Below are positions 7,877-64,000 of a stretch of DNA of 64,000 bases, one piece after another. Source of the stretch: Candidatus Saccharimonadales bacterium (lineage in GTDB: Bacteria > Patescibacteriota > Saccharimonadia > Saccharimonadales > UBA4665); contig DATIIP010000033.1 of assembly GCA_035479475.1 (NCBI GenBank), forward strand, positions 2,449 to 66,448, given 5' to 3'. How positions within the stretch are numbered: the stretch's first letter is position 1; each line of letters begins with the position of its first letter. The position numbers and the translations under genes were made by a program. The notes beneath the pieces were generated by a model. It saw nothing but the letters and a program-made list of their open reading frames with translations. It was not told the DNA's origin and made no database searches.

Positions 7877-10800
7877 TCACGGGTTACACTGCGCTGCAAC
7901 GGTTGACCAGTAGCCTACGTCCGGTCGGCTGCTATCCAGGTTCCAGCTCTCTTTGTTCGGTGCACGAAGTCTAACAAATTCCCAGTGACAGAAAAACTGA
8001 TCCTGCAGGTTTTTACGGTTGGCGGTTGGCGCTAGCGACTTAACTTGATTCCACGCTTCCAAACCATTTCTGGCATCTGTAACTCTACCCAATTTAGTCG
8101 GATATACCCTCAGTGTATCACCTCTTTTTATGACCTTATCAATATATCTGGGTGGCCGTGGTGTTGTATGCTTGCCAGTAAAGAAATGGACGTTCTTAAA
8201 GAGGTTCTTCCAGCTTATACTGTTTTGCCCACTCAAATCATTATCATTCACTGGATCCTGGGGATATACATAGTCATTGGTATTGCCGCCTTCTACTGGG
8301 TCTATCTGGGCGAATAATCCAAGATGAGAGCTGTACAAGCGACTACCCATTTGGATATAGCCGTGGTCTACGGTATTGCTAAAGGTAAACATTTCGCTGG
8401 AGCCCTTGTAGCCGAAGAAGTCACCGTCGGCATTGGAGGGGTTGGGTGTGGTTATGATGTTGCCGAATGGATCGTACTCATATGTCCAGGCACCGGCACT
8501 GCCGTCCCCATTTGCAACGGCAAAGATATCTCCGTTCATATCAGGCAGCGAGTAAACGTTACTAAAGCTGCTCGGGTTACTAATCTGACTGCCCTGTATG
8601 GTTAAAATGACATTTCCTGGCAATTGAACATATCGTGCGGTTAAGCTAGAGCCCGAGAAATAGGAAGCTATTGGTGTACTAGTAGAGTCCGCATACACAC
8701 GATAGGCAGACGCGTTGCTGCTGTAAGTCTGACGATTTATGGCATCAAACGTCTGCTTAGTACTGAATTCGCTCATGTAGACCGCGCGATCTGACGAATC
8801 GTATTCGATACCAGTTTGCGAGCTGCTGCCTTTGGAAAGGTTCCCGTGCGCATCATAGGTCTCGGTGGTGTAGTCGCTGTCGTTGGACTTGATGAGCCGA
8901 TCTGCATAGTCGTAGCAGTATGTGGTACTCGTGATGCCGTTGATGGACTGTGAAGTGCGGTCGCCGTCTTTGCCAGCATTGGTGTTGTATGTTCCTGTGC
9001 AGCCTGTCGGGGTGCCATAGTTGTATCCAAAGGTCGTCGCACCAAGCCTAGCCGAGGTCAGCCTACTGGCCTTGTCGTATGTATAGGTTTTAGCCATAGC
9101 ATTTTCTGTGCCTGATACGACTTGCCCGGACTGGCTGAGCGTCACCGCATCGGCAATAGTTGTGCCAGGAGCGCTTGTGCCTCTAGTATAGGTAACACCA
9201 CTCTGGCTACCTAAGGTGTCATACGACACAGTCAGCTTCAGCACACCAGCGGCATTGTATGCAACCGCACTAAGTCTACCGTAGGCGTCATAGGTGGGCG
9301 TGGCAATGGTAATTCCTGCCAGTTTTTGCGTCGCCAGTCGGTTGTAATTATCGTATGTATAGCTTTCTGTACCGACGCCCGATTTAGTAATTAGTCTGCC
9401 AAGATTATCATAGACATAGGTAGTGCCATACAAATTATGGGTTGTACCGATGATCTGTTCATCGGTGTAAGCCGTTAGTCGCCCTAGCAGGTCATTGGTG
9501 CTTGTTAGCGTACCGCTGCCGTCAGCTACTGTGTTCACTAGCGGGTTACCGAGGTAAGCATAGTTGGAGGTTATAGTTCGTGCAGAGCGTGTAACGTGAG
9601 TGGTATTTGCAAGCGCCGGATATGTTTGCTGCGTGACTCTGCCCCGGCTATCGTAGGTCGTACATTTCCAGGGGTCGGTATTGATGCGAGCTGCAACTAT
9701 GCGGCCGGCGTTATCATAGACATTCTCTGTTGTAACTGGAGTCTGCGAACCTGCACCATCGGGGTCAGGGCCGGTTGTAATCTTGAGCATGCCGGCCTGC
9801 GAGAACGTCTGGCTAACATTGCACGGGTTTTGTCGGGTTTCGGTGGCGCCGTAATAGCTGTAGTTTGTAGTTACCCCGCCTGGAAGTGCCTTAGAGAGTT
9901 GTCTGAGGAAGCTACCGGTCGCCCCTTGCGTTTCATAGGTGTAGCTCGTGGTTAGTGCCAGGCCAGACGGATCAACCGTATCGGATTGCACTAAACCTAG
10001 TTCTGGGTGAGTACCATAATTGTGCGTCGTTACTTGGTTGCCCACGCTGGCGCTGGAATCGTACGTGGTGTCGGTGGTATCCAGACCGTACAGCGGCGTC
10101 AGCAAACTGCCCAGCGAACTGGTTTCGCTGCCGCCGGGAGGCGTCATGTAGAGCTCCAGGCGGGCGTTGGTGTCGCCCAGCTTGTTGTAGTAATCTAGGC
10201 GCACACGATGCCAGTTTTGGGTGTCGTCGCCTGCGTTGTAGGTAGCAGCAAACGTACCGGTGGGGTGCGAACGCTGCGCGCCGTCGGTCCAATCGTTGAC
10301 GATCAGGTTGTCATCGATCCACAGCCGTACGCCATCGTTGGAGAACACACGGAAGTTGTACGTACCAGTGGTGGTTAAGTGAATATCGCCGGTCAGGCTG
10401 GCGCCCCAGCCGTCGCCGCTGTCGGGCGTGAACGGCGGCGTGCCGTTCCAGGTTTGCAGAACATCGCCGTTACTCGGACCGATGCCGGTAGCATGACTCT
10501 TAGGCGCGCCGAACAACACAGCGGTGCTGCCGCCGGTGCCGTTGGTGGCGCTGACTTCGTTGTAATAGGCGGTGGCCAGGCCGTTAATGCCTTGATCGTA
10601 CCCAGTCTGGTCGTGCGGTACCTGCGGCGTGTAGTCGGTGGGCGTAGTGAGCGGTTTGCGGTCGGTGCCAAACCAAGTGGATGGAGCCGGGCCGTAGGTG
10701 TCGGTCAGGCGGCTGGCGTAATCGTAGAGGTACGTGGTTTCCAAGCCAGTCGGCTCGGTGCTTGAAAGTGTTAGGTCTTTTTTGGCATCCCACACCGTGG

Positions 10801-13800
10801 TTGTGGTGAGGTTGGCTACGTCGGTATCAGTCAGGGTGCGGAAGGTGCCATCGTACGTTACTTTGCGGGTAAAGCCATTCGGCTCGGTGGCGTTGGTAAC
10901 GTGCATGAGCGCGGTATTGTTGGGCAAATACGTGTAGGTGTGTGCCAACGGCGTAGCGCCAGCGGTGGCAGCTGGCAACGTTACACCAACTGCTCGGCCC
11001 AGAGCGTCGTAGGATATAGCCGTATAGGTAGTGGCATCATCCGCGCGAACACCGGCGCTAACTGCATCGTAGGCCAGACTATCTCGTACCTGCACAATGC
11101 GCCCGGCAGTGTCATAGCCGTAATCGGTAGTTTCGGAACCCGGCGCCACGATGCGCGACAAACGGGGGTTACCATTGCCATCGGCCTTGTAAAAGAAGCT
11201 AGTGGTGTTGCCGTCGGAAGTAGTGGCGGCACAAACGTACTGCGTAGACGTAGCGGCCAAGAAGCCAGATGGCGCAGTCGGACAACTATTGGGCGAATCG
11301 CTGCCGTAGTACACCTTAAGCCAGCGCGAACCGCTGACCGGGTCGCTGATTTGCGTTAAATGCACCGGTGAGCCATTGGACGTGCCGTAGGTGTATTGCA
11401 ACGCAGCCGGGTGTAAGTCGTCGGTGGCGGATGTAACCGAGCGGATGGTGCCATCGGTGTTAAAGACGTACGTTTGGCCATCGCTATCTTGCAGTGTTAC
11501 CGTGCCATCACCATTCCGGATCATTTGTCCGACCTCACCCGCTGGCGGTGTAAAACCGCCGTTCACATAGGTGTATTCATGCGATTGACCCTGAGAATCG
11601 TACAGCGTGACTGCCGATGGGTTGATGACTGCGTAATCATAGTTGGCGGTGCCATCGGCGTCCAAGCTCAAGTTCCAGCCATCGGGCAACACTTGGGTGC
11701 CGGGCGACAATGAGGTTGAGCTGACCGGCACACCTTGGGCGTTGCCCTGATTCCCCTGCTCCACGTACAGCCCCATTTGGGCATTACCCGTGTTCTCGTA
11801 ATATTCAACGGTGATGGGCACGGTTTGACCGGCGCTCAGCGTTGTGCCGCTGGCGGCATAGACCAGCGGGCTCGGACCATGATCGGACCAACTGTCCACA
11901 ATCTTGGTGCCGTTTAGGTAAATGCGCACGCCATCGTCACTGCCCGCCCCAAAGGTGTAAGTATCGGCAATCGGTGCGGTAAAGTAGCCGGTCCAGCGCA
12001 CCATAAAATGGTCGGCTGGTGCGCCCGGTGCTGGGGCATTCGCGCCCCAGTTCAGGTTTAAGCTGGGGTCGGTGCGTACCAAAAAGACGCGCGTTGGGTC
12101 GGCCGCGTCGGTGGGAAAATTGTGTGAGCCGTCGTCGGTGTAATAGTGGCCAGCCAGCCCGTGCGCCGTCGCGATGGGCTGAATGCCAGTTTGCAGCCAG
12201 GTGGTTGGGATGGCCTGCGATGCAATGGTGCCGTCGGTGGTTTTTACCAGCATCTGTGCCGAAGCGTTGCCGGTGATCTCGGCGAATTCATAGGTGATTT
12301 GTTCAACCTGGCCGGCCGTAAGCATAACCCCGGTGCCAAACTGAGCCGTGGGGTTGACGCTCCAGCCGTCCACATAGGCCGTGCCAGAACCGTTCAAAAA
12401 GATGCGCGAGCGATCGTCACTGGTAGTACCAAACTGGTAGGTGCCGTTTTGCGGTGCTACAAAGTAACCGGTGTAGCGCGCCAAAAAGTGATCATTATTC
12501 ACTACTCCGGAATACGGGCTGCCGCTACCCCAATCAAAGCTGACGTTGGGATCGGTGCGCGTGATGAGCGGAGCACTCGATGGAAACACCAATGTCCCGC
12601 CCGGATCATTCCAATATTGGCCAATCAGTCCGGCACTCGAGCGCTGCGGCGAGTTATAATCAAGCCCTAGCCCAAGCGTGCCACCCAGCGCAGCCACCGA
12701 ATTAGTCTGATTGCTAGTGGTTACATTACCGGTAGCCATATCAACATCTACCGGACCCATGCTGTCCAGGCTTTGTGTACTGTCGCGGCCATTGCGCAGA
12801 TCCACCCGGAACGAATAGACCGGCCCATACACCTGCGGCGCCCCGCTGTAGCTATCCCACACCACTGGCTGCCAGTAGTAGGTGGTACCGTCGTGCAAGA
12901 CATTGGCCGGCAGCGTCCATTGAGCCTGGTTAAGCAAACCAGAATCAGCAATCACTCCGGTGACGCCTTGTTGAATGTGGAACGGATCGTTTTGCGGCAG
13001 GTTTTTGCCCATGCCGACGATATAGCGATATTGCAGTGGCCCCGGACCATCCGGGTCGCTCGGCGTGGTAGAACCCAGCGTGGGCTGCAACGACGCTGTG
13101 CTGCCACCGTCGACCGGTGCCGGAATGCAGGGAGAGGCTGTGCAGATGGTGCTCTGTGCGGGCAGTGTCTCGTAGGTAAAGGTGACGCTAGTTTGCGTGT
13201 TATCGAAGAATTTGTAAGTATCGGCCGAGGTCTCTTCGCCTCTCACAATCATCCAGGGGCTGGTATCGCTAGCGGCTACTGCCGCTCGGTACATCGAAGC
13301 CATTTCGATGTCGCCACTCGTCGCAATAACGCTACTTGCTTCACCATAGGTACCTGCCGGATCAACGCAGTTGAACCCATTGGTACAGCTGGCGTGGTCC
13401 ACCGTAATAGTCTCGTTGCCGGTGGTGCCGTAATCGTTGCCGTCAGGCGTGGGCATTTGCAGGTGCAGCTTGGCACTCACCAGATATTGCCCAGGTGAAG
13501 CTGGCACAGCCGCCTGGTACACAAACCGCCAATAATCATCTGCGATGGCATCATGGCCCACACTGTTGCCGCAGCCCTGCCCAGGCCCGCACGATAGCCC
13601 AAAGTCACTCTCGAAATTGTTATAATTGCTGCCCTCCGGCACTGTAAACACTGTGGGGTCGATTACCAACGGGAAGGCTTTTTTGGGCTGTGCAGACAGC
13701 CAATCCTGGTCAACCACCACGCTTAGCACATTGCCCGAGGCGCTTTGCGTAACCGGTGAATCTTTAGCCACAATGCTGCCAGCAGCAGTACGCACAGTGG

Positions 13801-14674
13801 GCGCGGCCAGCACAAAGCCGCTAAATGCACCGTCTAACGCATACGCGCCATCTTGCCCGCTGACCGGTGTTAAATGAGCACCGGAAACCGCAAAACCATA
13901 CTGCGGCACAGCGTTCTTGTTGTGCAGCACGATGCTTTCCTTTACCTGCGAACCGCTGACGTTGTAGCGCAGGTCTACGCCGTTCCACAAATTGGCGTAG
14001 GTAACGGTTTGGGCCGAGCCCCTGCCCGATACAGTTGGATTCACAGCATTGGCGTCTACTGGCAGCATGCGAAAGGTTTGGCCGTCTTTGGCCAGTGCCA
14101 CGCCATAGGTTTTGGCATTGCCAAAGCTAGCTTGCCAGGCATTGGCCCGGGTACGCCACACACCGTCCGAGCCTTTTACGAGCGATGAATCAACATTTTG
14201 CCACTTGCCATTAGCGTCTTGATAGCTCGTGGCCTGGGCGGTATACACCACCGATGTTGTGCCATCGGCGTTGCGGTATTCCCGGCTATTGGCCGTCCGG
14301 CCAGTACTGAGTAATTGTACGTGTGTAAAGTTTTCACTCTTGCCCTTGGCGGCCGCGGCTTGCTGAGCAGCCAGCTGTGCGCTGAGTTTGGAAGAAAACG
14401 GCGCGCCAGCAGCCAGGCCCGAGCCACTAGCGGCCGGGGCGTACTGCAAGGCAGCATCGCTGGTAAGCGCTTGCGGCGTATGGCCACGTTTCGCCAAATA
14501 GTGCTCGATGTAGCTATAGAGCCCCGACGGGCCCGCGCTAGCAAACAGCAGCACCAGCAAAGAAAAAACACTGAACGTTCGGTAGCTCAGTGTTTTTACC
14601 CTTTTGGCTGGCCCCGTGCCGGTCCGAATACTATAGAGTTTTCTTCTGTTACCCCACGTTTTTATAAGCCGCAT
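7877..14674 (-). CDS. RHS/YD-repeat protein with N-terminal signal anchor, three PA14 domains and a short C-terminal variable module (polymorphic-toxin architecture)
   Basis: YD repeats ('YTYDNYNRL', 'YDAYGRL', 'YTYDKASRL', 'YEYDPFGN'). RHS core end '[41 protein letters not shown]'. ATG at 14674 has AGGAGG 4 nt upstream; the track start at 14692 is less likely. Confidence 0.9.
7880..8224 (-). other. C-terminal variable module of the RHS protein (115 aa after the core-terminal motif)
   Basis: Sequence after '...[11 protein letters not shown]'. It ends '[44 protein letters not shown]', which I recall as resembling DUF2599-type proteins (memory only). Confidence 0.6.
10140..10585 (-). other. 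PA14 domain 3, inserted within the YD-repeat region (approximate bounds)
   Basis: '[11 protein letters not shown]...[26 protein letters not shown]...RLDYYN'. Confidence 0.7.
11760..12161 (-). other. PA14 domain 2 of the RHS protein (approximate bounds)
   Basis: '[16 protein letters not shown]...[35 protein letters not shown]'; tandem to domain 1. Confidence 0.8.
12230..12635 (-). other. PA14 domain 1 of the RHS protein (approximate bounds)
   Basis: '[12 protein letters not shown]...[35 protein letters not shown]'. Confidence 0.8.
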
Positions 14675-14805
14675 AGTGCCTCCTTCAGTCAATCCTAAGC
14701 AAGCTCATACTCCCACGCTACGCTCAAAAGCATTGGTGAATTTTCTTACAATAGTTTGTTCATTTTTGTATATTTCAGACGCTTTTAAGCTTTCTAGATC
14801 GCAGC

Positions 14806-38134: not shown

Positions 38135-41100
38135 CTAGCGGCGGGGGCGCAGAACACCCGCAACCACTTCACCCCTAGTGAGGCCATTCGCTTCAGCAAA
38201 CGGAGTGAGCTCATCGATCATCCCTTCGCGCACACTAATGGCACTAGCGGTGTTCATGTAATTCCAAGCTGCCTGGTTGGTAGCATCGGTCTTCAGAGCA
38301 TTGAACTGTTCGTCAAAGATCCTCAGGATGTTATCTGGAGTCCGCTCTGCAGCCGGTAGTGCGTCGATCTGGCTTTGAACCTCAGTTCTAAAGCTGCCTA
38401 CCATCCGGGTGCGGGCAGTCGTAGCCTCGGCACGCTCAGCATCCATACGAGCAGTCCGTTCAGCGGGTGTTTCTGCTACTGGTGCAGGGGCTGCTGGGGC
38501 GTCACCAGGAGCGGGAGGCGTACCGGGAGCTGGAGGGGTGGTGCCAGGGACGGGAATCGGAGCACCACCACGAACGCCAGGAACTGTAACCGAAAGCGGG
38601 TTATCGCGGCGAATGGCAGCAGCGGCACCGGCACCGTGCCTAAAGTCTGCACTCACAGCAGCATCAGCGGCAACAGTAGCCATACCGGCTAAACCGCCCA
38701 GATACGGATAGTTATCGTAGAAGAAGCTACTCTCGCTTGGGTAAGCCGTGTGGGTTACCGATTCGTGGCCAGCTGGCGTAGTGCCGTGGATGAACTGGTC
38801 AATTACATTGTTTGGCACCACAGCAACGTGGGCGTTGTTACCGGCAGCCAGCTTCATGTACAGCGTCTGTTGGGCATTGTCCATTACACCGTGGAATGTC
38901 TCGTCGATGTGAACTACATTTGAACCATCAATATGATAGACGGCCATAGTGTGACCATCTGGAACTTCCAGGCCGCTGTGACCGTTAACCTTGTCGCCAA
39001 GATACCAGGTTGAACTGGTTGGGTGAATTTGGCCATTGTGACCAACGGCTAAGCCGTGAGTGACATCAACATGAGCGCCTGCGGCGTGGGCCTTAGAGGC
39101 ACCAGCAAGAATAGTCTGTTGTGCGTGAACCTCAGTACCTTGTGGAGCATTGTTCCAACCAGTACCGTCGGCATTAGTGTGCTGCATGTGCTGAATGAGC
39201 GTGTGGTGCGGGTTGGTACCAGCCACCTGATGAGACAGATCGCCCCAGTGAGCAGCATTCGAAGTATCGACATTGCCAACACCAGGAATATTGTGCGTAC
39301 CACTCGTATCAGGAGTAACGCTAGCACCTGCATGTTCAACGTGTCCGCTAGCTAGTGAATGAAGACCACCGGCTGCAGCACCACCAAAGAAGCCACCAAG
39401 CGCACCGAAGCCAATACCACGTGCAGTACGCCTAGCGCGTTCCTCGGTGTTAGCCTGGAAAACATCACCACTATGCGTGTCCATAATTCGGGCCACTTCA
39501 GTAGTGAAGCCATCGTAATCATCACCATACCGGCCGCGAGCTTCCTCGATACGAGCCAGCTGATCTTGAATACGAGTACGGAGCACGTCAGACCCCTGAG
39601 CGTTGGCTGAGCCACGGGAAAGGTTGGCAAACCACCGACCCATTACGCCACCACCAACGGCACCAGTAGCCGCACCCTTGCCAGCACCAATAAGTGCAGC
39701 CCACAATACAGCCGTTGAGCCACCAGAGGCAGCGAAACTTACGCCTACTGCAGCGGTCATGGCACCATATAGGAGGACCTTCCCTGCGGGACGTGACAGG
39801 AAGCGGAGGAAGCGGTTGCGGCCGACTCTTTCAGCAATGCGTTGACCACGTGTCTTCTCTTCGGCCACTTCGGTCTGCTGACGCTCGCCTACCATAGTCC
39901 AAGCAGTTTGCTTGTTGAGAATCCTTTGACCACCACTACCTGGCTCAGCGGCCAGTGCAGCATCAAATGCTCGGCGGGCAAGTAGGTAATCGCGTTCTAG
40001 CTCGGCACGATTGCCTGCGCCGGCACCGCTTTCCAAGGCGTGCTTGGCACGAGCCAGGTCCACGATAGCCCGTTGGGTATCTGCAGAGAAGGTATCGAAT
40101 TCAGGCGTGCGCAGTGGAGTCGGCTCTGGTTCTGGATCACCAGTTTCAGCAGGTGCAGCGGGAGCATCGGCTGGGCGCGTTACACCCGGCACATCGGCTG
40201 GAGCGAGGGCGCTAGGATCATTACCAACCAAGCGACGAACAGCTGCAGCAGTAAGCGCAGTGCGAAGGCCGTTCATGTGACGGTCACGGACAGCGGCGAA
40301 ACGGGCCTGAGCATCAGCAAGCTGGGCTTCTAGAGCAGTGACGGCTAGGGCGTCGCCTCGACGGCGTGCTGCCTCGAGGTCGCTCTCTAGAGTAGCAATC
40401 TGCGCTTCGTGGCGAGCGTTGATTGAAGGCTCGTCACCTGCCTCGCCTTGTCCACGAGTGCGGGCCAATTCTGCACGGGCAGCCTGCTGCATAGCAGTCA
40501 GCTCTGTGCCATTGATGTTGGCGTTTGCAATAAACCGCTCCAGACGTGCTCGATCAGCATCAGACAAGTCTGCAGGATCAGCGCCGAACAGCTCTACGTT
40601 CCTTAAGGCTAGTTGCATCTTGCGGTTGACGCCGTTATTGACATCGCGCAGAGCTTCGATGGTACCACGAGTAAAGTCGATGGAGCCAGTGGCCAGCGCC
40701 CATTGGTCTGAAGTTAGACCAGGAATAACACCGGCATCTGGTACGGCTTCGTCACGTGTACGAGTACGGCGATCACCAGGTGCTACGCCAGTAACTCCTT
40801 CGGCTCGGGCGATAGCGTCTTCACGGGCTTCAATACGGCGATCTAGCAGGGTTGGGGGGCGCCCCTCTTGGGCACGCATAAAGTTGTTATAAAACCAGCG
40901 CTCTTCGGGATCTAGAGCTGCGATAGCTCGGGCAACGTCTACACCAGTGTGAGGGCCACCCCCAGCAACTCCTACGCGGGCATGTACCGGGCCGGTTGCA
41001 CGATAGTGACCGATGGCACTTTCAATCAAACCCATCCGCTCGGTTATCTGATCGGGAGTCATTGCTAGTACTCCCTGCAAGCGGCGCATGCTTTGCTCAC

Positions 41101-41308
41101 CTTCTGTACCAGGGCGAGCAGCGTCAGACAAAACATCGGCCGCTATAGGAGCAACCATGTTTTCGGCAATTGCGGTTTGTACGTTGCGATTAAGCAGGAA
41201 TTCGTTGCGGTCTCGGTTCACTGGAACACCAGCTACGCGAGCAGCCCTGTCCGCCTCGTCTTGAGCCGCGCGTGCCTGGTCCATTGCTTGTACGATTCGT
41301 TCACTCAT
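38135..41308 (-). CDS. 1057-aa orphan membrane protein: Ala/Arg/Glu-rich N-half, Gly-zipper TM segments, His-rich domain, Pro-rich linker, helical C-terminus
   Basis: Long ORF with no strong competing frame. TM candidates 'VLLYGAMTAAVGVSFAA', 'AVLWAALIGAGKGAATGAVGGGVMG', 'GIGFGALGGFFGGAAAGGL'. Confidence 0.75.
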   Translation of the reverse strand: MSERIVQAMDQARAAQDEADRAARVAGVPVNRDRNEFLLNRNVQTAIAENMVAPIAADVLSDAARPGTEGEQSMRRLQGVLAMTPDQITERMGLIESAIGHYRATGPVHARVGVAGGGPHTGVDVARAIAALDPEERWFYNNFMRAQEGRPPTLLDRRIEAREDAIARAEGVTGVAPGDRRTRTRDEAVPDAGVIPGLTSDQWALATGSIDFTRGTIEALRDVNNGVNRKMQLALRNVELFGADPADLSDADRARLERFIANANINGTELTAMQQAARAELARTRGQGEAGDEPSINARHEAQIATLESDLEAARRRGDALAVTALEAQLADAQARFAAVRDRHMNGLRTALTAAAVRRLVGNDPSALAPADVPGVTRPADAPAAPAETGDPEPEPTPLRTPEFDTFSADTQRAIVDLARAKHALESGAGAGNRAELERDYLLARRAFDAALAAEPGSGGQRILNKQTAWTMVGERQQTEVAEEKTRGQRIAERVGRNRFLRFLSRPAGKVLLYGAMTAAVGVSFAASGGSTAVLWAALIGAGKGAATGAVGGGVMGRWFANLSRGSANAQGSDVLRTRIQDQLARIEEARGRYGDDYDGFTTEVARIMDTHSGDVFQANTEERARRTARGIGFGALGGFFGGAAAGGLHSLASGHVEHAGASVTPDTSGTHNIPGVGNVDTSNAAHWGDLSHQVAGTNPHHTLIQHMQHTNADGTGWNNAPQGTEVHAQQTILAGASKAHAAGAHVDVTHGLAVGHNGQIHPTSSTWYLGDKVNGHSGLEVPDGHTMAVYHIDGSNVVHIDETFHGVMDNAQQTLYMKLAAGNNAHVAVVPNNVIDQFIHGTTPAGHESVTHTAYPSESSFFYDNYPYLGGLAGMATVAADAAVSADFRHGAGAAAAIRRDNPLSVTVPGVRGGAPIPVPGTTPPAPGTPPAPGDAPAAPAPVAETPAERTARMDAERAEATTARTRMVGSFRTEVQSQIDALPAAERTPDNILRIFDEQFNALKTDATNQAAWNYMNTASAISVREGMIDELTPFAEANGLTRGEVVAGVLRPRR

Positions 41309-50444: not shown

Positions 50445-52019
50445 ATGCGGACAGGGGAGCGATGGCAATGGTTTTGGGCACAGCAGCGATTACTCGCCTA
50501 TGGATGCGGGACATTGCTGGTGAGCACGTGGACACTGCTGCGATTTTTCACCACTCGCACCACGTTCGACCTGGTGAGCCAACAGGTAATTGTGCATCAG
50601 TGGCTGCAGGGCGCTATGACGCCAGCACACATGGGACAAACGGCCTACGTGCTGAAGATGCTGGTTTTGTACGTACCGCTCGATCTACTGCCCGGCTCGC
50701 CGCGCCTCAAGCTGATAGCAATAACGCTGGCAATTAATATTGCAACGTTTGTATTGCTTGGCGTGGTGCTGGAACGGCTGCTGCGCGAATTTGGTGGACG
50801 GGTACGCAGTGTGCTGTATGCAGCGCTGGTAGGGTTGAGTGCCATTGCCGGGTCGGTGTTTTGGATTGGCTTTGCCAATTCCCGCAATTTAGAGGTGGTC
50901 GGCGGCGTCTTGTGGATGTACTTGGGGCTGCGTTATATATGGCGGCAAAGCTGGCGGCTGGCGATAAGCTTGGTGATCTTGGGCGGTTTGCTGTTTTTCG
51001 ACGACCCTTTGCAGTTTTATATGACGGCACTGCCGCTTTTGGTGTACGGCGTGGCGCTAGCAGCGGCAGGGCAGTACTCAATACGAGCAGCCGGTAAACT
51101 GCTGGGTCTAAGCCTGGCAGCTTGGGGATTAGCCCACTTGCTGGCGATAGCGATGGGTCACTGGTTGCAACTGAGCTTTACTGATACCGGTGGCCTAGCC
51201 TCACACTCATGGTCAGCGAGTTGGCTGGTACAAAGTGTGGCTGGAGTGGCAAAAGCAGTTCTAAGCCTGTTCGCCGGAGGAGCCGACGCTGGCAGGGCGC
51301 GCGAGCTTGCCAATATTGGCCTGTTGGGGTTAGGCCTTGCCGCCCTGGTGTATAACGCGGTAAAACGGTTGGTGCCGAGGCGGCTGATTGCATTCTTGGC
51401 ATGCTGGGTCGCGGTCGATCTGGCAGTGTATGCCGCTAGTGGACAAGCCGTGCACGGTGCGGCTACCTCACGCTACCTCATCATGCTGGCCCCGGCGGCT
51501 CTAGTGGGCCTGGGGATGATGCGTTGGCCACGACACCCCTGGAGTATTAAATTGGCGGTAACGGTGATGGTAGCAGGCCTGGCTCTGAATGTAGGAGCAC
51601 TGGGTAGTAGCCTGCTGCGTCACTGGGACGGTAGCTTTCCGGCTGACGCGCAGCAGGCCAGCGTCTATCGATATGCGCAGGCGCATCCGAAGCTGCATGT
51701 TTATACCAGCATTGATACGGCCATGGCAGTGCTTTATCTGCACAACCTACCAGCACAACGCAGCCTCCCGGTAGGATGTCTGGATGGAAAACTAGTACGC
51801 ACTCACTATTCGATGGACCGCGCCTTTGCTGATAGTAGTCGAACGCCAGGTGCCGTAGCGGCAATCGTCTTGGACGGTACGAGCATCCAAAACAGCCCGA
51901 ATGTCTGTACGACGAGCAGTATCAGCTCAGAATTCGGCGCACCCATCAGGCTGGCGCACACCGACAATAGCAGCGTGGTATTGCTATATCGGCAGGCAGC
52001 TTTGAGGCTGCCCGACTAG
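50445..52019 (+). CDS. Polytopic membrane protein (about 12 TM) with a C-terminal soluble domain; possible GT-C-type glycosyltransferase
   Basis: Hydrophobicity pattern only, plus neighbourhood (GtrA, PIG-L fusion). Confidence 0.6.
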   Translation: MRTGERWQWFWAQQRLLAYGCGTLLVSTWTLLRFFTTRTTFDLVSQQVIVHQWLQGAMTPAHMGQTAYVLKMLVLYVPLDLLPGSPRLKLIAITLAINIATFVLLGVVLERLLREFGGRVRSVLYAALVGLSAIAGSVFWIGFANSRNLEVVGGVLWMYLGLRYIWRQSWRLAISLVILGGLLFFDDPLQFYMTALPLLVYGVALAAAGQYSIRAAGKLLGLSLAAWGLAHLLAIAMGHWLQLSFTDTGGLASHSWSASWLVQSVAGVAKAVLSLFAGGADAGRARELANIGLLGLGLAALVYNAVKRLVPRRLIAFLACWVAVDLAVYAASGQAVHGAATSRYLIMLAPAALVGLGMMRWPRHPWSIKLAVTVMVAGLALNVGALGSSLLRHWDGSFPADAQQASVYRYAQAHPKLHVYTSIDTAMAVLYLHNLPAQRSLPVGCLDGKLVRTHYSMDRAFADSSRTPGAVAAIVLDGTSIQNSPNVCTTSSISSEFGAPIRLAHTDNSSVVLLYRQAALRLPD

Positions 52020-57461: not shown

Positions 57462-58133
57462 CTAGGCCTGGGCAAAGACAATGGCATCAACGCGAGCAGC
57501 GCCGGCACGCCGCAACACGCGGGCAGCAGCCTCCAGCGTGGCACCGGTGGTGAGGACGTCATCGATCAATATAATGTGGCGACCGCGAATTTCGTTGACT
57601 TGCACAGGCCGAAAAGCTGCTTGCAGCTGTTCGAGCCGCTGACTGCGGCGCGATCCCACCTGATGCGCTTGACCGACGCGGCGGAGCACTATGCGGCGAG
57701 GTGTATTCGTCAACCGTGAAACCTCACGGGCGAGCAAGGCCGCGTGATCGTAACCGCGCGCACGAACTCGGGACGTAGCGGTTGGAACGGGTACTAGCAC
57801 CGCGTCGCCCGAAAAGCCAGCCAGTTGTCTGGCAAGCAAAAGTGCTATTTCAGCGACGCCCGCCTGCGCCCGCTCATATTTCATGCGGTGAATCAGCTCT
57901 TTAGCCAAGCCACGATATTGGACACACGCCATAACCTGATGTAGGGGGGTGTCCTTTCGACAATCGGCGCAAACTGCACCATCATTAGTCGCGGTTCTAC
58001 ACCGATAGCACCGAGAGGGAACAGGCTGAAGCAACTGCAAGCAATTTGCGCAAAGTAATCGGTCATCTTCGCTGCCACATCCCAAACAGATATGGGGTGC
58101 AATCAAGCGGACCAGCCTCTCTAAAATGCTCAT
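57462..58133 (-). CDS. comFC: ComF-family protein (ComFC-like phosphoribosyltransferase)
   Basis: N-terminal Cys clusters 'CLGCGS...CANC...CYRC...CADC' and the PRT motif 'ILIDDVLTTGAT'. Confidence 0.85.
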   Translation of the reverse strand: MSILERLVRLIAPHICLGCGSEDDRLLCANCLQLLQPVPSRCYRCRTATNDGAVCADCRKDTPLHQVMACVQYRGLAKELIHRMKYERAQAGVAEIALLLARQLAGFSGDAVLVPVPTATSRVRARGYDHAALLAREVSRLTNTPRRIVLRRVGQAHQVGSRRSQRLEQLQAAFRPVQVNEIRGRHIILIDDVLTTGATLEAAARVLRRAGAARVDAIVFAQA

Positions 58134-58284: not shown

Positions 58285-58779
58285 ATGGCGCGACGTAACC
58301 GCGACGATGACCTACTACTGGAAGAAGACGAGCTGACTGCAGCATTTTTGGGTGACGATGATGGCGTAGTAGCTGCAGCGAGCGACGACCCGACTGCCAC
58401 ACAGCCGGCCACTATAACTGGCACCGACGAGTGGGATGAAGACGAAACGGTACTACCCGGCCAACTAGCTGTTGACGTTTATGAGACCAAGGAAAAGCTA
58501 GTCGTCAAAGCCCGCACCGCAGGTGTTAATAAGGGCGACCTAGACGTTAGCATTGCCGATAATACGCTCAGTATTCACGGTACGCTTTCTGCTGGCACCG
58601 ATGACGCGGTTGAGAATTACTTTGTGCAAGAGTGCTACTGGGGCGAGTTTAGCCGCAGCATTGCTTTGCCGGTCCCCGTCAAGGAAGAGGACATTGAAGC
58701 TGTGCTGAAGGACGGCGTACTGACCATCAGCTTTACCAAGGTCAAACAAGACACCGTTAAGAAGATCCAGGTCATTTAG
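58285..58779 (+). CDS. Hsp20/alpha-crystallin small heat-shock protein
   Basis: 'VDVYETKEKLVVKARTAGVNKGDLDVSI.DNTLSIHG...FSRSIALPVPV...AVLKDGVLTISF'. Confidence 0.92.
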   Translation: MARRNRDDDLLLEEDELTAAFLGDDDGVVAAASDDPTATQPATITGTDEWDEDETVLPGQLAVDVYETKEKLVVKARTAGVNKGDLDVSIADNTLSIHGTLSAGTDDAVENYFVQECYWGEFSRSIALPVPVKEEDIEAVLKDGVLTISFTKVKQDTVKKIQVI

Positions 58780-58894: not shown

Positions 58895-59311
58895 CTAAGG
58901 ACTCTGGGTTACACGGTTTAGAACGAACTGAACAATAAACTGTGCCAGCGCGACTACCACCAGGCCAATGAGGGCGTAGATGATAGTGTTTTTGGCACTT
59001 GATATATTGCTGCTTTCGCCACCTGAGGTAATGTAGCGGAAACCACCGACAATGATCATGATAACCGATACGACACCAACGACAAGCGAGAAGATGTTGA
59101 TGACGGTAGTAATGATGCTGTTGATTTTGTCGGTACCATTTGAGGTTGTGGAACAACCAGAAGTGTCACTAACACTCAAATTAGCTCCCTGACAAAGGTT
59201 ATCTTGAATGCTGGGAGCAGCTGACACAAGAGCAGGGACCGCTATTGGCACAGCGATAAGCGATACGGCGCTCACTAGGCCAACAACGAAGTTCTTAAGA
59301 TTCTTAAGCAT
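58895..59311 (-). CDS. T4SS-pilin-like small protein, paralog 6 of 6 (last in operon)
   Basis: Signal peptide, Cys pair 'CQGANLSVSDTSGC', core 'VVSVIMIIVGGFRYITSGGESSNISSAKNTIIYALIGLVVVALAQFIVQFV'. Confidence 0.8.
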   Translation of the reverse strand: MLKNLKNFVVGLVSAVSLIAVPIAVPALVSAAPSIQDNLCQGANLSVSDTSGCSTTSNGTDKINSIITTVINIFSLVVGVVSVIMIIVGGFRYITSGGESSNISSAKNTIIYALIGLVVVALAQFIVQFVLNRVTQSP

Positions 59312-59360
59312 ATAGCGTAGGTTCCTTCCTTTTTTGCTAGTACTTACTTGATTTATACCA

Positions 59361-59885
59361 TTAACTTAATGGGGATTTCAAGATATAGCGCTGATCAATG
59401 ACAGCGAATTCATTAATGCGTACCAAATTGGCGCCAACTTTAACACATTTATTCTTGTCGTTCAGGGTCTGGCCACTCGGGCAATCCGGTGCATTGACCT
59501 TGCCGAGTACAAACTGAACGATGACTTGGGCGAGCGCCACAATAACGAGCCCAACAATAGCATAGATCATGGTGTTCTTGGCGCTCGCAATCGCACTACT
59601 CTCACCACGAGAAGTTACATATTTAAAACCCGCCACAATGATCATGATAACGGACGCAATGGCGACGACGACACTCAGTAAGTTGATGATGACAGTTATA
59701 ACGTGGTCTATAGAAATGCCGTTACTTGGCTGCTGAGAACAGTCCGCATTACTGCCAAGCGCCGTACAGACGGTTGATTTCGGCGTTGCCGCCGCGACTG
59801 ACATGGGCGCTAACAAGCCACCAATACCCAGCCCTAGCAGCAGCGTAGTTAGTATGATCCCAATTCGCTTCATAATCTTCCTCAT
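59361..59885 (-). CDS. T4SS-pilin-like small protein, paralog 5, with an extra Cys-containing C-terminal extension
   Basis: Core 'IASVIMIIVAGFKYVTSRGESSAIASAKNTMIYAIVGLVIVALAQVIVQFV'. Tail 'CPSGQTLNDKNKC'. Confidence 0.8.
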   Translation of the reverse strand: MRKIMKRIGIILTTLLLGLGIGGLLAPMSVAAATPKSTVCTALGSNADCSQQPSNGISIDHVITVIINLLSVVVAIASVIMIIVAGFKYVTSRGESSAIASAKNTMIYAIVGLVIVALAQVIVQFVLGKVNAPDCPSGQTLNDKNKCVKVGANLVRINEFAVIDQRYILKSPLS

Positions 59886-60295
59886 AATTTACTTACTATC
59901 AGTATTACTGCGCCCTCGGCCACCGCGATAATCACTAGGCCTACCGTTGCACCAATCACCGCCTTGCGAGCACCGGCTGCTTTGTTGGCATCTCCGTTTG
60001 AAGTGACAAACTGAAAACCACCAACAATGATGATAATTACAGCCGCAATGCCGGCCAGGGTGGCAATTACCAGGGAAGCTTTTTTAAGAATACCGTTCGA
60101 CCCGGAAATAGGGTCTCCGGTGCCGGCAGAACAGGCTGTTGAATCACTGGAACCATTACCCGTGGTACAGGCGCAGGCTAAGGGGTTACTCGTAACGTTA
60201 CAGATCTGCCCCGCCGGTGCCGCGCTAACGGTCGCCAGTGGCCCGCTTATGGCAAGCAGTAAAACCAGCAGTAAGCCATACAGAAGTCGCCTCAT
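59882..60295 (-). CDS. T4SS-pilin-like small protein, paralog 4
   Basis: Signal peptide, 'CNVTSNPLACAC...ACS', core 'IIIIVGGFQFVTSNGDANKAAGARKAVIGATVGLVIIAV'. ATGA overlap with paralog 5. Confidence 0.75.
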   Translation of the reverse strand: MRRLLYGLLLVLLLAISGPLATVSAAPAGQICNVTSNPLACACTTGNGSSDSTACSAGTGDPISGSNGILKKASLVIATLAGIAAVIIIIVGGFQFVTSNGDANKAAGARKAVIGATVGLVIIAVAEGAVILIVSKL

Positions 60296-60604
60296 TTATC
60301 CAATTCCTTTCACTACAAATGTCACGATAGAATAAGCGGCCATGGTAACTACCAGACCGACAAGTGCGTACACAATGGTGCTCTTGGCCTGTGCGGTACC
60401 GTTGGGATCGCCGTGAGCCAGGATGTAGCGAAAGCCAGCGATTACTATAATGAGTACGCTGATAGACGCCGTGAAGGCAAAGATGATACCAAGAGCAGTG
60501 GGGATGGTGTTAGTGGTGGTGGTCTGCGGCAGACAGCTGGTATCGATGGGTGCACTGTTCGCGCCACACTCGCCAGCAGCTGCAAATAATCGTGGTATGA
60601 GCAT
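60296..60604 (-). CDS. T4SS-pilin-like small protein, paralog 3 (short N-terminus)
   Basis: 'CGANSAPIDTSC', core 'LIIVIAGFRYILAHGDPNGTAQAKSTIVYALVGLVVTMAAYSIVTFV'. Confidence 0.75.
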   Translation of the reverse strand: MLIPRLFAAAGECGANSAPIDTSCLPQTTTTNTIPTALGIIFAFTASISVLIIVIAGFRYILAHGDPNGTAQAKSTIVYALVGLVVTMAAYSIVTFVVKGIG

Positions 60605-60613
60605 ACTTTATCC

Positions 60614-61027
60614 TCAGCTCGTTCCTAGTTTATGGCCGATGAATGCAACTACCGAGGCAGCTATTAGTGCTATAGCCAGGCCGATCAAGGCATTGATGAT
60701 GGTCTGCTGAGCCTTCTTGGTAGCGTCTGGGGCACCCTGACTGGTCGTGTACTGAACACCACCGGCAATCACATACCCTACCGCTACATAGGCGGCTACT
60801 ATGATTAGATCGTTCAAGATGGCTAAGACAATTAGCAGAATCGCACTGTGTGCGCTGAATATACCTGGTTGTGTACCGTCGCTGACCGGGTCAAAGTTAA
60901 CAATACGACAGGAGCCGCCCTCGTCACGCAGTGTTAGATACTCATCCCAAGGTGCCAGGCCCAAAAACCTGGGCTTGGCGCAGGTTAATGCAAAAGTATT
61001 GAGATAGGGCAGTAGTAGTGAGAGCAT
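60614..61027 (-). CDS. T4SS-pilin-like small protein, paralog 2 (divergent N-terminal region)
   Basis: 'FLGLAPWDEYL', core 'YVIAGGVQYTTSQGAPDATKKAQQTIINALIGLAIALIAASVVAF'. Confidence 0.7.
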   Translation of the reverse strand: MLSLLLPYLNTFALTCAKPRFLGLAPWDEYLTLRDEGGSCRIVNFDPVSDGTQPGIFSAHSAILLIVLAILNDLIIVAAYVAVGYVIAGGVQYTTSQGAPDATKKAQQTIINALIGLAIALIAASVVAFIGHKLGTS

Positions 61028-61048
61028 TATTTTATTCTACTCCTTTCA

Positions 61049-61531
61049 TTAGAACAGATTGCCCCCCGGCACTAAGAACTTGAGCAGGCTGAACAGAAAT
61101 ATAAAGGTAACTAGAGCAATAAGGGCATTGCGAATGCGATTCTTGGCGGCCGTGACTTTCTGCGGATCGCCCCCTGAGCTACCGTACTGGATGCCGCCAT
61201 AGACGATGGATATTACCACCGCCACTCCAACCAAGGCAGCCAAGAAATCAATAAAGGGGTTCAGGTAATTCTTGAACAGGTCACACTGGGAAATATCCGC
61301 ACAGTTTCCTCCATTTGTGCCCGAGCCAACGGCACTACATTGGCTTAGGTTTGCCACCTTGGTGGTGCCATCGGGGCAGGTTACACAAGCCACAGGCTTA
61401 TGGGTAGTGGGGTCGGTGCAAGTTGGAGCGGCAGCAGCGGCTACCTTGAATTGGCTTACCACCAGCGTGGGCGCTAAGATGGAAACAATTAGGGCCAGGC
61501 AAGCAAACGTCAGTTTTAGTTTTTGTGACAT
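61049..61531 (-). CDS. T4SS-pilin-like small protein, paralog 1 (first in operon, Cys-rich head)
   Basis: Signal peptide, seven Cys in 'CTDPTTHKPVACVTCPDG...CSAVG...CADISQC', core 'ISIVYGGIQYGSSGGDPQKVTAAKNRIRNALIALV'. Confidence 0.75.
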   Translation of the reverse strand: MSQKLKLTFACLALIVSILAPTLVVSQFKVAAAAAPTCTDPTTHKPVACVTCPDGTTKVANLSQCSAVGSGTNGGNCADISQCDLFKNYLNPFIDFLAALVGVAVVISIVYGGIQYGSSGGDPQKVTAAKNRIRNALIALVTFIFLFSLLKFLVPGGNLF

Positions 61532-61602
61532 TTGAGACTAACTATACAGCCGTTCCTCTCGGTAATCAAGTTGCTGAGAGGAGGGGATTGGGAGGCGTCG
61601 GG

Positions 61603-64000
61603 GTGCCTTCAAAATTTTATTGAGACCTGATACACTTATGGTGAACGTAGCAAGAAGGCCGATACTTAAGGTGAAACCAAAAAGCAGTGTTAAGCGGTGG
61701 GGTTATTTAGCAATTCTGCTGCTTTTCTTGACCACCACTCTAACTAGTATGGTTAGCTTGTTTATGCCAGCCATTTTGTCGGCGGCGGCAACCGGTGCTC
61801 ACACAATTTATGGTGACAACACTACCTCTTGCGGTGCCTCATTGGCCTTACTTAACCCTGGCGATACGCAAGCCAAAACGGTTTTAGGAACCGGTGTTGG
61901 GGATCCGGCCAGTGAGCTATATAACCTGACCCAGGGCATTTCTGGTGAGAGTGCCGGTGCTATAGCCACATTTAAAGACGTTTACAACAAGCAGGGTGTG
62001 TTAAACCTTGGCTTTGCCGACGCCGGCGGCGGCGCCAACAACTACGTGGCCTGCAACAATTCAATTACGTTTTTCCGTAAGGTTGTAACATCGGACCAGA
62101 ATACATTCTATGGGGTATGGCGGTGTGTTCCACCGGGCGCTACCGGTAGCACGCTGTGCCCTTCGGGCGGCGGGTTAACGTACAAGCTGGTGACTGCCAC
62201 CATCAATCCGAGTGCCAAAACTATGACGTTTAGCTGGCCGGGGGGCAACAATGGGGCGACCACTACAGCCACCATCAACGTGGCCGACCCTGATGGCGAC
62301 TTTGCGAATAGCCAGTATTTTAGCAATGGCGCCAGTGGCGGCACCTCACAAACTGTGGCAACTTGTTTATCAGTTAATCAGCACAATGATATTTCACAGT
62401 GTTTAAAAGGTAAGACAGCACGCTTTGTCGATACGGCACACATATCATTTGATAACGTAAGTTATGTAGCGAGCAGTTGGGGTGGTAATGACATTTATTA
62501 CACTGCCGAAAACGACCCCACCCTTACGAACCTGGGCGCCAAGTTCGATGTAAAAACAAATCATACCGATACCGACCTGAACATCGATGACCCCAGCAAG
62601 ATTAGCGACCTGGCAGACCTGCGCAAAACCCTAGGCGGCGGTTACAGAGCGAGCGTCGAGTACGACATTATTGGGAATAGCGGCACCGTTCCGGTGGATG
62701 CCGGGACGGGCAACACCAGCATCAACCAGGTGGCAAACTATTATTCCAACAGCTCCGACCCCAGTAGCGACTCTATCCAATTAGTGTTCACTAATGGAGC
62801 CGGCACTAACGAGGGTAGATTCTACGGTGTTTACAGCCGGTCTGACGCTACTTCTACGACGTTTACCTATGCAAACGGTGGGTATTCCTGTGGCAGTAGT
62901 GAGAAACCGCGGTTTGTGCTGTCACACAACCCAACTGCTGGAGAGGAAGATGGCAGCCACACGCTTACCGCTACATGGTATATTCAAACTAATAACGCCC
63001 CCTGTGGTGAAGAGGCCATACCTGTCACGATTCTATTGGAGCCGGTGGATGCCATTCCTCCTGCACTCAATGGCACCTGTGCCGCCGGTACCGATGCCAA
63101 CGGCAACTGTACCGGTGATACTGATGTCGCCATTGACTGCGGTACGGGTACACTGAACTGGATTGTCTGTAGAGTAATTGAGGCCGCCCTGGGTACGGTC
63201 GAAAAGCTCGATAACTTCATCATGAACACCCTGGATATTGACGTTAAGCCCATTTTCGATAACGTCGATAGCAACACCTACTACACCGCCTGGAACTCCT
63301 TCCGGGTAATTGCCATCGCTCTGCTGATAGTAGCCGGTCTGATAATGGTTGCCTCACAGGCTCTGGGCTTTGAGTTTCTCGACGCCTACACCATACGAAA
63401 AACCCTGCCGCGCCTGATTGTAGCTATTATTGGCATTTCGCTTTCCTGGCCGCTGATGCGCTACTGCGTCAACCTGTTCGACGCGCTTGGGTTTGATGTT
63501 CGGGCGCTTATATATCATCCGTTCAAAGGGTTGAATAGCCACTTTTCGATCAGCGTCGGTCTATGGTCTATGGTTGGCACTTTTGCGGCTGTGTGGCTGC
63601 TGGGCTGGGCATCGTTAACCTTTGCACTGAGCATCGCCCTGGCTATGTTTATTGGCTTTGTGACGCTGGTAGCCCGCCAGGTTGTCATTATTGTGCTGGT
63701 TATCTTGGCACCGATTGGGATTGCCTGTTACATTTTGCCGAACACTCAGCGGGCGTGGCGTATGTGGCACGAAAACTTCTTGGGTATGCTGCTGCTGTTC
63801 CCGATCATATCGGCTCTGATGGCAGCCTGCGATGTGTTTACAGCCGTGGCATTGAGCCATGGTGGTACTTCTACGGCCATGCTGATGGGGCAGGTTGGTG
63901 GCCTACTAACTCACTTTTCGGCACATCGTTTTCACCTGGTGCTACACAGTTTTGCTAATAACACGGGTGGTTTGGTTGCCAGCGGCACCGCCATTGGCTT
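61603..64000 (+). CDS. VirB6/TrbL-like polytopic membrane protein with a ~560-aa Cys-containing N-terminal ectodomain (3' end outside window; not in the supplied ORF track)
   Basis: Hand translation of frame 1 shows no stop from before 61603 to nt 64000. GTG at 61603 has GGGAGG 7 nt upstream (alternative ATG at 61639). C-terminal TM block includes 'VVIIVLVILAPIGIACYILPNTQRAWRMWHENFLGMLLLFPI'. Confidence 0.75.

Follow-up and report, generated by a model that had tools for sequence, protein, structure and literature searches.

The window examined here is a 64,000-nucleotide stretch of contig DATIIP010000033.1 (assembly GCA_035479475.1, positions 2,449 to 66,448 of the forward strand) from a Candidatus Saccharimonadales bacterium. 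At its right-hand end, a reading frame on the + strand that runs beyond the last base is transcribed divergently from an array of six paralogous VirB2-type pilin genes (Table 1). The frame is a genuine gene for a protein of 1279 residues, and we assign this protein, with a probability of about 0.88, as the VirB6 subunit (Pfam TrbL_3) of a Saccharibacteria-type chromosomal type IV secretion system (T4SS), in which its helical core would serve as stalk base and pilin platform. The gene belongs to a family already described, within a described system, and does not represent a new kind of component.

A preliminary description of the window, prepared from the letters alone, had noticed an uninterrupted frame reaching the last base, and this is borne out: the + strand is open for 807 codons after a TGA at 61575–61577, the remaining five frames over the same stretch carry 26–55 stops each and, at the base composition of the window (54% G+C), the probability of meeting no stop over 807 codons is ∼8e-15. 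The register that had been named (61603/61639) is full of stops on translation; the open frame lies one base earlier, in phase with base 61503 (position mod 3 = 0). The count of 787 complete codons from an ATG stands, but this ATG lies at 61638–61640 rather than starting at 61639, and both of the peptides that had been quoted, WGYLAILLLFLTTTLTSMVSLFMPAILSAAA and LAPIGIACYILPNTQRAWRMW, are found in the translation. As had been supposed, the gene was missing from the program-made list of open reading frames (ORFs) because its frame runs past the window end and has no stop within it, and the six short ORFs listed inside it (62108–63958) are indeed spurious, since the frame that overlaps them has homologues with E-values as low as 1e-154.

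The exact protein is on public record as HSX05977.1 (P0001; 1242 residues, from a Candidatus Saccharimonadales metagenome-assembled genome, MAG). A second gene call of the same protein (P0154), 1279 residues long and beginning at the ATG at 61638, is encoded on contig CAZDOB010000001.1 of assembly GCA_964506955.1 (locus L087), which shows 0 mismatches to the window over 12,363 overlapping bases. Because L087 is identical to the window, the end of the gene can be placed at window-equivalent position 65477, and this independent assembly reads through to that stop with no in-frame stop before it. Homology, a confident predicted fold and the identical second assembly together rule out a spurious ORF or a pseudogene.

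Two start codons were considered, the ATG used by P0154 and a GTG at 61671. The latter is the homology-supported start, because the N-termini of relatives align from residue 12 (for example P0005, MKPKNRFKRWGSL...) and the motif AGAAGG precedes it at 61653–61658. The NCBI start of HSX05977.1 is an internal ATG at 61749, 37 codons late; the practical consequence is that the public annotation cuts the signal peptide, half of which is lost. This predicted segment has, in order, an n-region with seven Lys/Arg and no Asp/Glu, a long hydrophobic h-region and an AAA motif, and equivalent N-termini occur in relatives, in agreement with the N-terminal signal or transmembrane (TM) segment that had been proposed from the letters.

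All six pilin genes match PF18895 (T4SS_pilin, a VirB2-like family), four of them above the cutoff, and their mean pairwise identity is 30%. Their divergent arrangement had been recognized correctly, but the spacing had been given as about 70 bp; the start codon of the first pilin gene (61531) in fact lies 106 bp from the ATG and 139 bp from the GTG. The intergenic region contains a σ70-like promoter match for the pilin operon on the − strand (61569–61541; a consensus match only). A G+C-rich hairpin followed by a T-rich run (61591–61610, + strand) was also seen in the 5′ leader, just before the VirB6-like start codon; it may have a regulatory function or have arisen by chance, shuffled sequences being expected to yield 0.4 such matches.

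Table 1. Features of the VirB6-like gene and of the adjoining pilin array (window coordinates)
Feature	Position	Strand	Basis
VirB6-like (TrbL_3) gene, ORF	61578..64000, ends past window	+	No stop in 807 codons; full gene on L087
Candidate starts: ATG 61638–61640 (used by P0154), GTG 61671–61673 (homology-supported)	61638..61673	+	
Sec-type signal peptide or anchor, residues 1–51	61638..61790	+	Predicted from charge/hydropathy; relatives' N-termini equivalent
Variable folded ectodomain, residues 52–475	61791..63062	+	AlphaFold, alignment
Cys-rich linker and juxtamembrane helix, residues 476–545	63063..63272	+	Family-wide conservation starts here
VirB6-like polytopic helical core, residues 546–787, on to about 801 past window	63273..63998	+	Hydropathy, fold, alignment
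hhalign-aligned stretch, residues 676–716 versus R388 TrwI 165–205; contains LAPIGIACYILPNTQRAWRMW	63663..63785	+	
Divergent intergenic region	61532..61637	.	Consensus matches only
Six paralogous VirB2-type T4SS pilin genes, divergent array	58895..61531	-	PF18895 in all six
Individual pilin genes	61049–61531, 60614–61027, 60296–60604, 59882–60295, 59361–59885, 58895–59311	-	
HSP20 gene adjoining pilin array	58285..58779	+	Kept in 60/65 related loci
ComF-family protein (PRTase and double zinc ribbon)	57462..58133	-	Kept in 49/65 related loci

Helical core, genomic position and topology

The assignment to VirB6 is secure because fold, recurrent family matches and conserved position are taken together. 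A block of at least five TM helices had been anticipated, and the protein indeed has a hydrophobic block at residues ∼550–741 and 7–8 long helices in residues 545–801; these core helices are modelled by AlphaFold with a predicted local distance difference test (pLDDT) mostly of 80–95, and the hydropathy is polytopic both in the protein and in the family alignment. Two models were calculated, one of the 787 in-window residues (mean pLDDT 79.5) and one of the core and C-terminus (pLDDT 82.3). A Foldseek search of the PDB with the first model gave as its top four hits TrwI/VirB6 chains of the R388 stalk complex (7o3v_F, 7o3v_J, 8rt9_F and 8rtd_L), at a probability of 1.00 over ∼275 columns with ∼15% sequence identity; the identity of these chains as TrwI/VirB6 was confirmed and record NC_028464 was used. 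TrwI was again ranked first with the second model.

Family matches point in the same direction. PF19590 (TrbL_3) is a precomputed match to P0154, which is the exact protein, and to P0006 and P0007 (E <= 1e-5 in each case); it is also recorded on P0001. PF04610 (TrbL) aligns with residues 636–756 at 19.5 bits (E = 9e-4), below the cutoff of 25.9, and is the sole recurrent Pfam family, found in 11 of 44 members at E <= 0.01, in every case sub-threshold. The resemblance of the TM block to TrbL/VirB6 that was first proposed from the letters therefore holds for the fold and for PF19590, but PF04610 stays under its threshold. Relatives number 7,416 representatives (clustered at 50% identity) at E <= 1e-3; single-protein scans of genome contigs and of metagenome contigs gave zero relatives, and the NCBIfam scan of the ORF returned nothing. 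The core carries the conserved motifs LDAYTIRKxLPRL and LPNTQKxWKLW, together with invariant R680, P701 and T703. In BFVD a phage protein annotated as a TrbL component was matched at a probability of 0.84. The best BFVD matches were three uncharacterized phage proteins (G3MBL9, which is Gp153 of Bacillus phage G, A7KUX7 and A0A7U3TFF5), aligned over ∼290 columns and closer to the model than the solved TrwI (TM-score up to 0.66); the aligned length suggests that the three share the VirB6-like core fold.

The genomic position was read on L087, where the gene for PrgI (VirB3-like, 42 bits) begins 27 bp past the VirB6-like stop codon and is accompanied downstream by a gene for a TrsD/TraC-like protein and, at 2.2 kb, by a VirB4 ATPase (NF045971, CD1110 family, 362.5 bits against an NCBIfam curated cutoff of 325; P-loop_TraG, 95.6 bits). 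A T4SS ATPase of this type, for which the preliminary description had proposed looking downstream, is thus present in the same genome. Further along lie a 1117-residue protein with no family match and then a Phage_lysozyme2/C39-like wall hydrolase, and neither a relaxase nor a coupling protein was found within 10 kb downstream. The same gene order surrounds four of five relatives examined singly. Among 80 GTDB species-level genomes, almost all from Saccharibacteria or Saccharimonadales, 56 of the 60 loci with sufficient sequence have VirB4, PrgI and TraC-like genes on the downstream side, and 61 of 65 related loci have divergent pilins upstream. The window is chromosomal, with genes for DnaG, RpoD, GroEL, ArgRS, ValRS and a Mur ligase, and this housekeeping context rules out an origin from a plasmid or an integrative and conjugative element; the core found no match in a tblastn search of 72,556 plasmids. 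All hallmarks of a Patescibacteria T4SS (VirB4, PrgI/VirB3, TrsD, VirB6 and a VirB2 pilin array, on the chromosome, with no relaxase or coupling protein nearby) are present.

Conservation across the family begins at about residue 476 and takes in the Cys-rich linker, in which all 55 aligned relatives keep C501 and C511, the juxtamembrane helix and the helical core. After the core comes a C-terminal domain of ∼470 residues, all-α, confidently modelled, Lys/Arg-rich and free of cysteine. The ectodomain carries 24 Lys/Arg against 50 Asp/Glu, and over its first 60 residues the tail has on average 12.2 Lys/Arg against 3.6 Asp/Glu. From this charge bias and the distribution of cysteines we infer an N-out, C-in topology. 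In Agrobacterium VirB6, the topology of which has been determined experimentally, the N-terminus is outside and the C-terminus is cytoplasmic. In the PDB the family profile gave only marginal matches (E ∼2e-3) to influenza HA2, in the region of its fusion peptide and coiled coil ('GaigtlaGfvndr' against 'GIFGAIAGFIENG'); the matching segment, full-length residues ∼800–930 (profile positions 612–730), lies past the window and after the core, and the similarity is probably compositional.

The ectodomain and its possible roles

The giant Cys-containing ectodomain that had drawn attention in the preliminary description is present, with exactly the 12 cysteines counted there (residues 65–511) and a composition rich in Thr, Gly, Ala, Asn and Ser, but it is not peculiar to this gene. 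A large Cys-paired ectodomain is the norm in the Saccharibacteria family, because 128 relatives with a recognizable signal peptide carry an ectodomain of 58–581 residues (median 314) with a median of eight cysteines, even in number in 91% of cases. At ∼500 residues, the ectodomain described here falls in the top tenth of the family by size. The tail past the last hydrophobic helix has a median length of 428 residues in these relatives, and signal peptide, Cys-paired ectodomain, helical core and all-α tail make up the standard family build.

The ectodomain model comprises an α/β N-terminal part followed by β-rich modules, with pLDDT mostly 85–95; it is acidic, and the cysteines predicted to be paired are 65/139, 163/174, 243/255 and 418/456. 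A search of the PDB and BFVD, made with the whole multidomain model, gave no credible fold match for this region, the hits being cadherin-type β-sandwiches at a probability of <= 0.16. Pfam and NCBIfam contain no adhesin or carbohydrate-binding family that matches residues 52–475 apart from a sub-threshold SusE hit (16.7 bits), and no internal repeats were detected within the ectodomain. Homology to VirB5 was likewise not found: hhalign of the family profile with R388 TrwJ gave a probability of 0.1%, and the ectodomain is not a helical bundle.

Relatives were compared separately over the ectodomain (window 61791–63062) and the core (63273–63872), and the two regions have discordant kin. In 78 relatives with cores at least 50% identical, the ectodomain is common to only one, and the 25 closest cores (60–66% identical) have no ectodomain match when the threshold is relaxed to E <= 10. 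The ectodomain is best matched by those of P0006, P0008 and P0014 (36–39% identity, E from 1e-88 to 1e-58), whose cores are only 30–36% identical. Because of this discordance, the alignments suggest an exchange of ectodomains between lineages, with the junction at the linker, near residue 476. The similarity of the neighbouring pilins tracks that of HSP20 (rho 0.52) and of the core (rho 0.35). Co-variation between ectodomain and pilins was considered and set aside (rho 0.15, not significant, with only five loci that have a homologous ectodomain). These sequence comparisons make the ectodomain a module that varies between lineages and follows neither the core nor the pilins in its inheritance. 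In the literature searched, the coverage of which was incomplete, we found no discussion of an N-terminal ectodomain of Patescibacteria VirB6 or of its mosaic inheritance.

By analogy with R388 (PMC9259494), several copies of the VirB6-like core (five in R388) would form a membrane-embedded stalk base, which would take pilin subunits from the membrane and act as an assembly platform for the pilus or channel, powered by VirB4. With the topology given above, the Sec signal would export the disulfide-paired ectodomain of ∼500 residues to the cell-surface side, and the all-α C-terminal domain would remain cytoplasmic and could there dock on VirB4, PrgI or substrates. The ectodomain would ring the pilus base on its outer face because it is tethered just N-terminal to the first core helix; it is the first core helix of R388 VirB6 that recruits VirB2 (PMC9259494).

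The preliminary description had raised the possibility of a contact or receptor-binding module. Our tentative preference is to regard the ectodomain as an envelope-facing or partner-facing specificity module around the pilus base. It might instead be a passive wall-spanning collar that replaces the VirB8 arches and the VirB7/9/10 scaffolds that monoderm systems lack, the identity of the protein as VirB6 being the same; the diversity of ectodomains would then reflect weak constraint and not partner specificity. This explanation, which we regard as possible if somewhat unlikely, draws on the attachment of the ectodomain immediately N-terminal of the first core helix, because of which it cannot reach the pilus tip unless cleaved, on the tenfold variation in ectodomain length across the family, strain ML1 managing with ∼120–150 residues, and on the restriction of conservation to the membrane-proximal 70 residues and one Cys pair. 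Weak constraint, however, leaves unexplained why ectodomains of 36–39% identity are found on cores of 30–36% identity and unrelated ectodomains on cores of 60–66% identity, and the confidently predicted fold, together with Cys pairs conserved within the subfamily, argues that the ectodomain is under selection. A bolder version of the specificity module, which we consider unlikely, would make the ectodomain a horizontally exchangeable cassette: no adhesin has been found in the Patescibacteria T4SSs (PMC12102498), and the ectodomain would be this missing adhesin or target-recognition element, attached directly to the stalk base and substituting for a VirB5-type cap. If that were true, swapping the ectodomain would retarget the secretion system, and hence the epibiont, to other host bacteria. 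The ectodomain is in any case a concrete and testable candidate for partner specificity, one that could, if the proposal is true, link sequence to host range.

Two other explanations concern the apparatus and the protein as a whole. The preliminary description had thought of a DNA-uptake apparatus, and in a DNA-uptake or conjugation machine the protein would be a channel subunit with an ectodomain that captures DNA or the mating partner. The VirB4 is of the conjugative CD1110 (MPF-FATA) type and weakly similar to the archaeal DNA-import ATPases CedB and CedD, and a ComF-family, competence-type neighbour is kept in 49 of 65 loci. Published genetics nevertheless disfavour the idea (PMC10633639): competence in ML1 needs type IV pili and ComEC, and a comEC deletion is viable, whereas the T4SS is essential (PMC10633639; PMC12857230). 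The absence of a relaxase or coupling protein in the 10 kb downstream is repeated across Patescibacteria (PMC12102498), and the ectodomain matches no DNA-binding family in Pfam or NCBIfam; we therefore hold a DNA machine to be highly unlikely. We give still less credence to the protein being no VirB6 at all but a permease or anchor, polytopic and unrelated, that carries fused surface domains and merely adjoins T4SS genes. The published annotation of ML1 did offer 'ABC transporter permease' as a weak alternative, and the sub-threshold TrbL matches and the hhalign result given below would suit such a protein. It would leave unexplained, however, why two independent models both have TrwI/VirB6 as their best structural match, why TrbL is the sole recurring Pfam family, with the TrbL-component phage protein of BFVD beside it, and why the slot between the pilins and PrgI–VirB4 is kept in >90% of loci, with no other VirB6 candidate in the cluster.

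Several points weigh against the assignment to VirB6, or against the topology and role proposed with it. Membership is weak from sequence alone, with PF04610 below its gathering score; PF19590 was not returned by the Pfam scan of the ORF and is known from precomputed matches. A PDB sequence search with the protein gave no matches and a PDB profile search with the family gave no VirB6. The hhalign comparison of the family with TrwI is weak, covering 41 columns only at E = 0.008 and a probability of 5%, and the Foldseek scores for TrwI are modest (E from 8e-3 to 2e-2, TM-score 0.40–0.44 relative to the target). The helix count is ambiguous, and AlphaFold draws residues 658–689 as a single continuous helix; the number of TM segments, and hence the membrane side of the C-terminal domain, is a deduction only. 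Hydropathy counting is itself unreliable because only two of the hydrophobic VirB6 helices of R388 are truly inserted in the membrane (PMC9259494). Oligomeric state, pilin handling and ectodomain function are predictions only, and some genomes have two paralogues.

Other observations at the locus and in the window

HSP20 and ComF-family (competence-type) genes are conserved companions of the Saccharibacteria pilin array. The TraC-like/TrsD-like protein (L087 15302–16003; window-equivalent 66939–67640) weakly matches the N-terminal part of the VirB4 models NF045971 and NF045975, and the adjacent VirB4 on L087 matches these models from about position 179 onward only; going by these alignments, the pair looks like a VirB4 split into two genes. 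The 1117-residue protein without a family match is encoded between VirB4 and the wall hydrolase (L087 17916–21269; window-equivalent 69553–72906), and the same slot in loci L001, L003 and L005 holds a large protein of 813–974 residues, with a Peptidase_M23 domain in the L001 copy and no family match in the other two. The genomes with two VirB6-like copies carry them at separate loci [L042/L055 (OY969576.1), L044/L075 (CAWFIL01) and L083/L086 (JBNQGE01)]. Three contigs with a Saccharibacteria-type gene (L020, L034 and L058) are filed under Gammaproteobacteria, Dormiibacterota and Verrucomicrobiia MAGs, which is probably due to binning contamination.

Elsewhere in the window, a 2271-residue protein (7877–14692, − strand) combines three PA14 stretches, GLEYA, an RHS repeat and a C-terminal DUF2599, and from these domains looks like a giant surface adhesin or toxin-like protein. 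Two further long ORFs have no credible Pfam family: 38135–41308 (− strand, 1057 residues) and 50445–52019 (+ strand, 524 residues).

Comparison with known systems

Saccharibacteria depend on a host bacterium, and theirs is the first T4SS proven essential for the life of its carrier (PMC10633639; PMC12857230). VirB6 homologues of Patescibacteria lie near virB4, with arrays of 2–11 VirB2 pilins (PMC12102498), and in Candidatus Southlakia epibionticum ML1, a strain amenable to genetics, the T4SS cluster SEML1_0006–0019 is essential (PMC10633639). The closest described counterpart is SEML1_0013 of this strain, which adjoins the pilins and has a structural match to TrbL/VirB6 and an ARM-repeat-like C-terminal domain (PMC10633639). 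By published description (Wang et al. 2023, PMC10633639; Quinonero-Coronel et al. 2025, PMC12102498), SEML1_0013 resembles the protein described here in adjoining a VirB2 array and a PrgI/VirB4 cluster and in its structural match, and is likewise built of three parts, an N-terminal region, then the core and an all-α C-terminal domain, within a chromosomal, relaxase-less system of the same phylum. It differs in that the ML1 core starts at about residue 156, so that its ectodomain is about a quarter of the size of this one, and in that SEML1_0011 and 0012 stand between VirB6 and PrgI in ML1 and are absent here.

TrwI/VirB6 of plasmid R388 (7O3V, 8RT9 and 8RTD; Mace et al. 2022, PMC9259494) likewise has about seven long, mostly hydrophobic helices and is encoded with homologues of VirB2, VirB3 and VirB4, but at 342 residues it lacks the signal peptide, the ectodomain and the C-terminal domain. 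The R388 system is that of a diderm, with VirB5, VirB7–11, a relaxase and a coupling protein, whereas no VirB5 homology was detected here. PrgH of Enterococcus pCF10 and the MPF-FATA monoderm systems invite comparison through the PrgI, the TrsD-like protein, the CD1110-type VirB4 and the wall hydrolase found here; by description, however, it is the MPF-T VirB6 profile, and not that of PrgH, that retrieves most VirB6 homologues of Patescibacteria (PMC12102498). Monoderm conjugation systems are without VirB2 pilins, which are present here.

F-plasmid TraG, the Rickettsia RvhB6 paralogues and Clostridium TcpH exemplify the VirB6 proteins with large additional domains. Such 'extended VirB6' proteins form a recognized class, defined by central or C-proximal hydrophilic extensions (Alvarez-Martinez and Christie 2009, as summarised in PMC12857230). 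The preliminary description had noted that canonical VirB6 proteins lack so large an ectodomain; an N-terminal extension is outside the definition of this class (PMC12857230). Membership was examined by Pfam only, which gave no match to TraG_N or to other extended-VirB6 families. With at least five hydrophobic helices joined to a large hydrophilic domain, the protein described here resembles this class, and its C-proximal domain of ∼470 residues agrees with the definition; it differs from the class in additionally possessing an N-terminal ectodomain led by a signal peptide.

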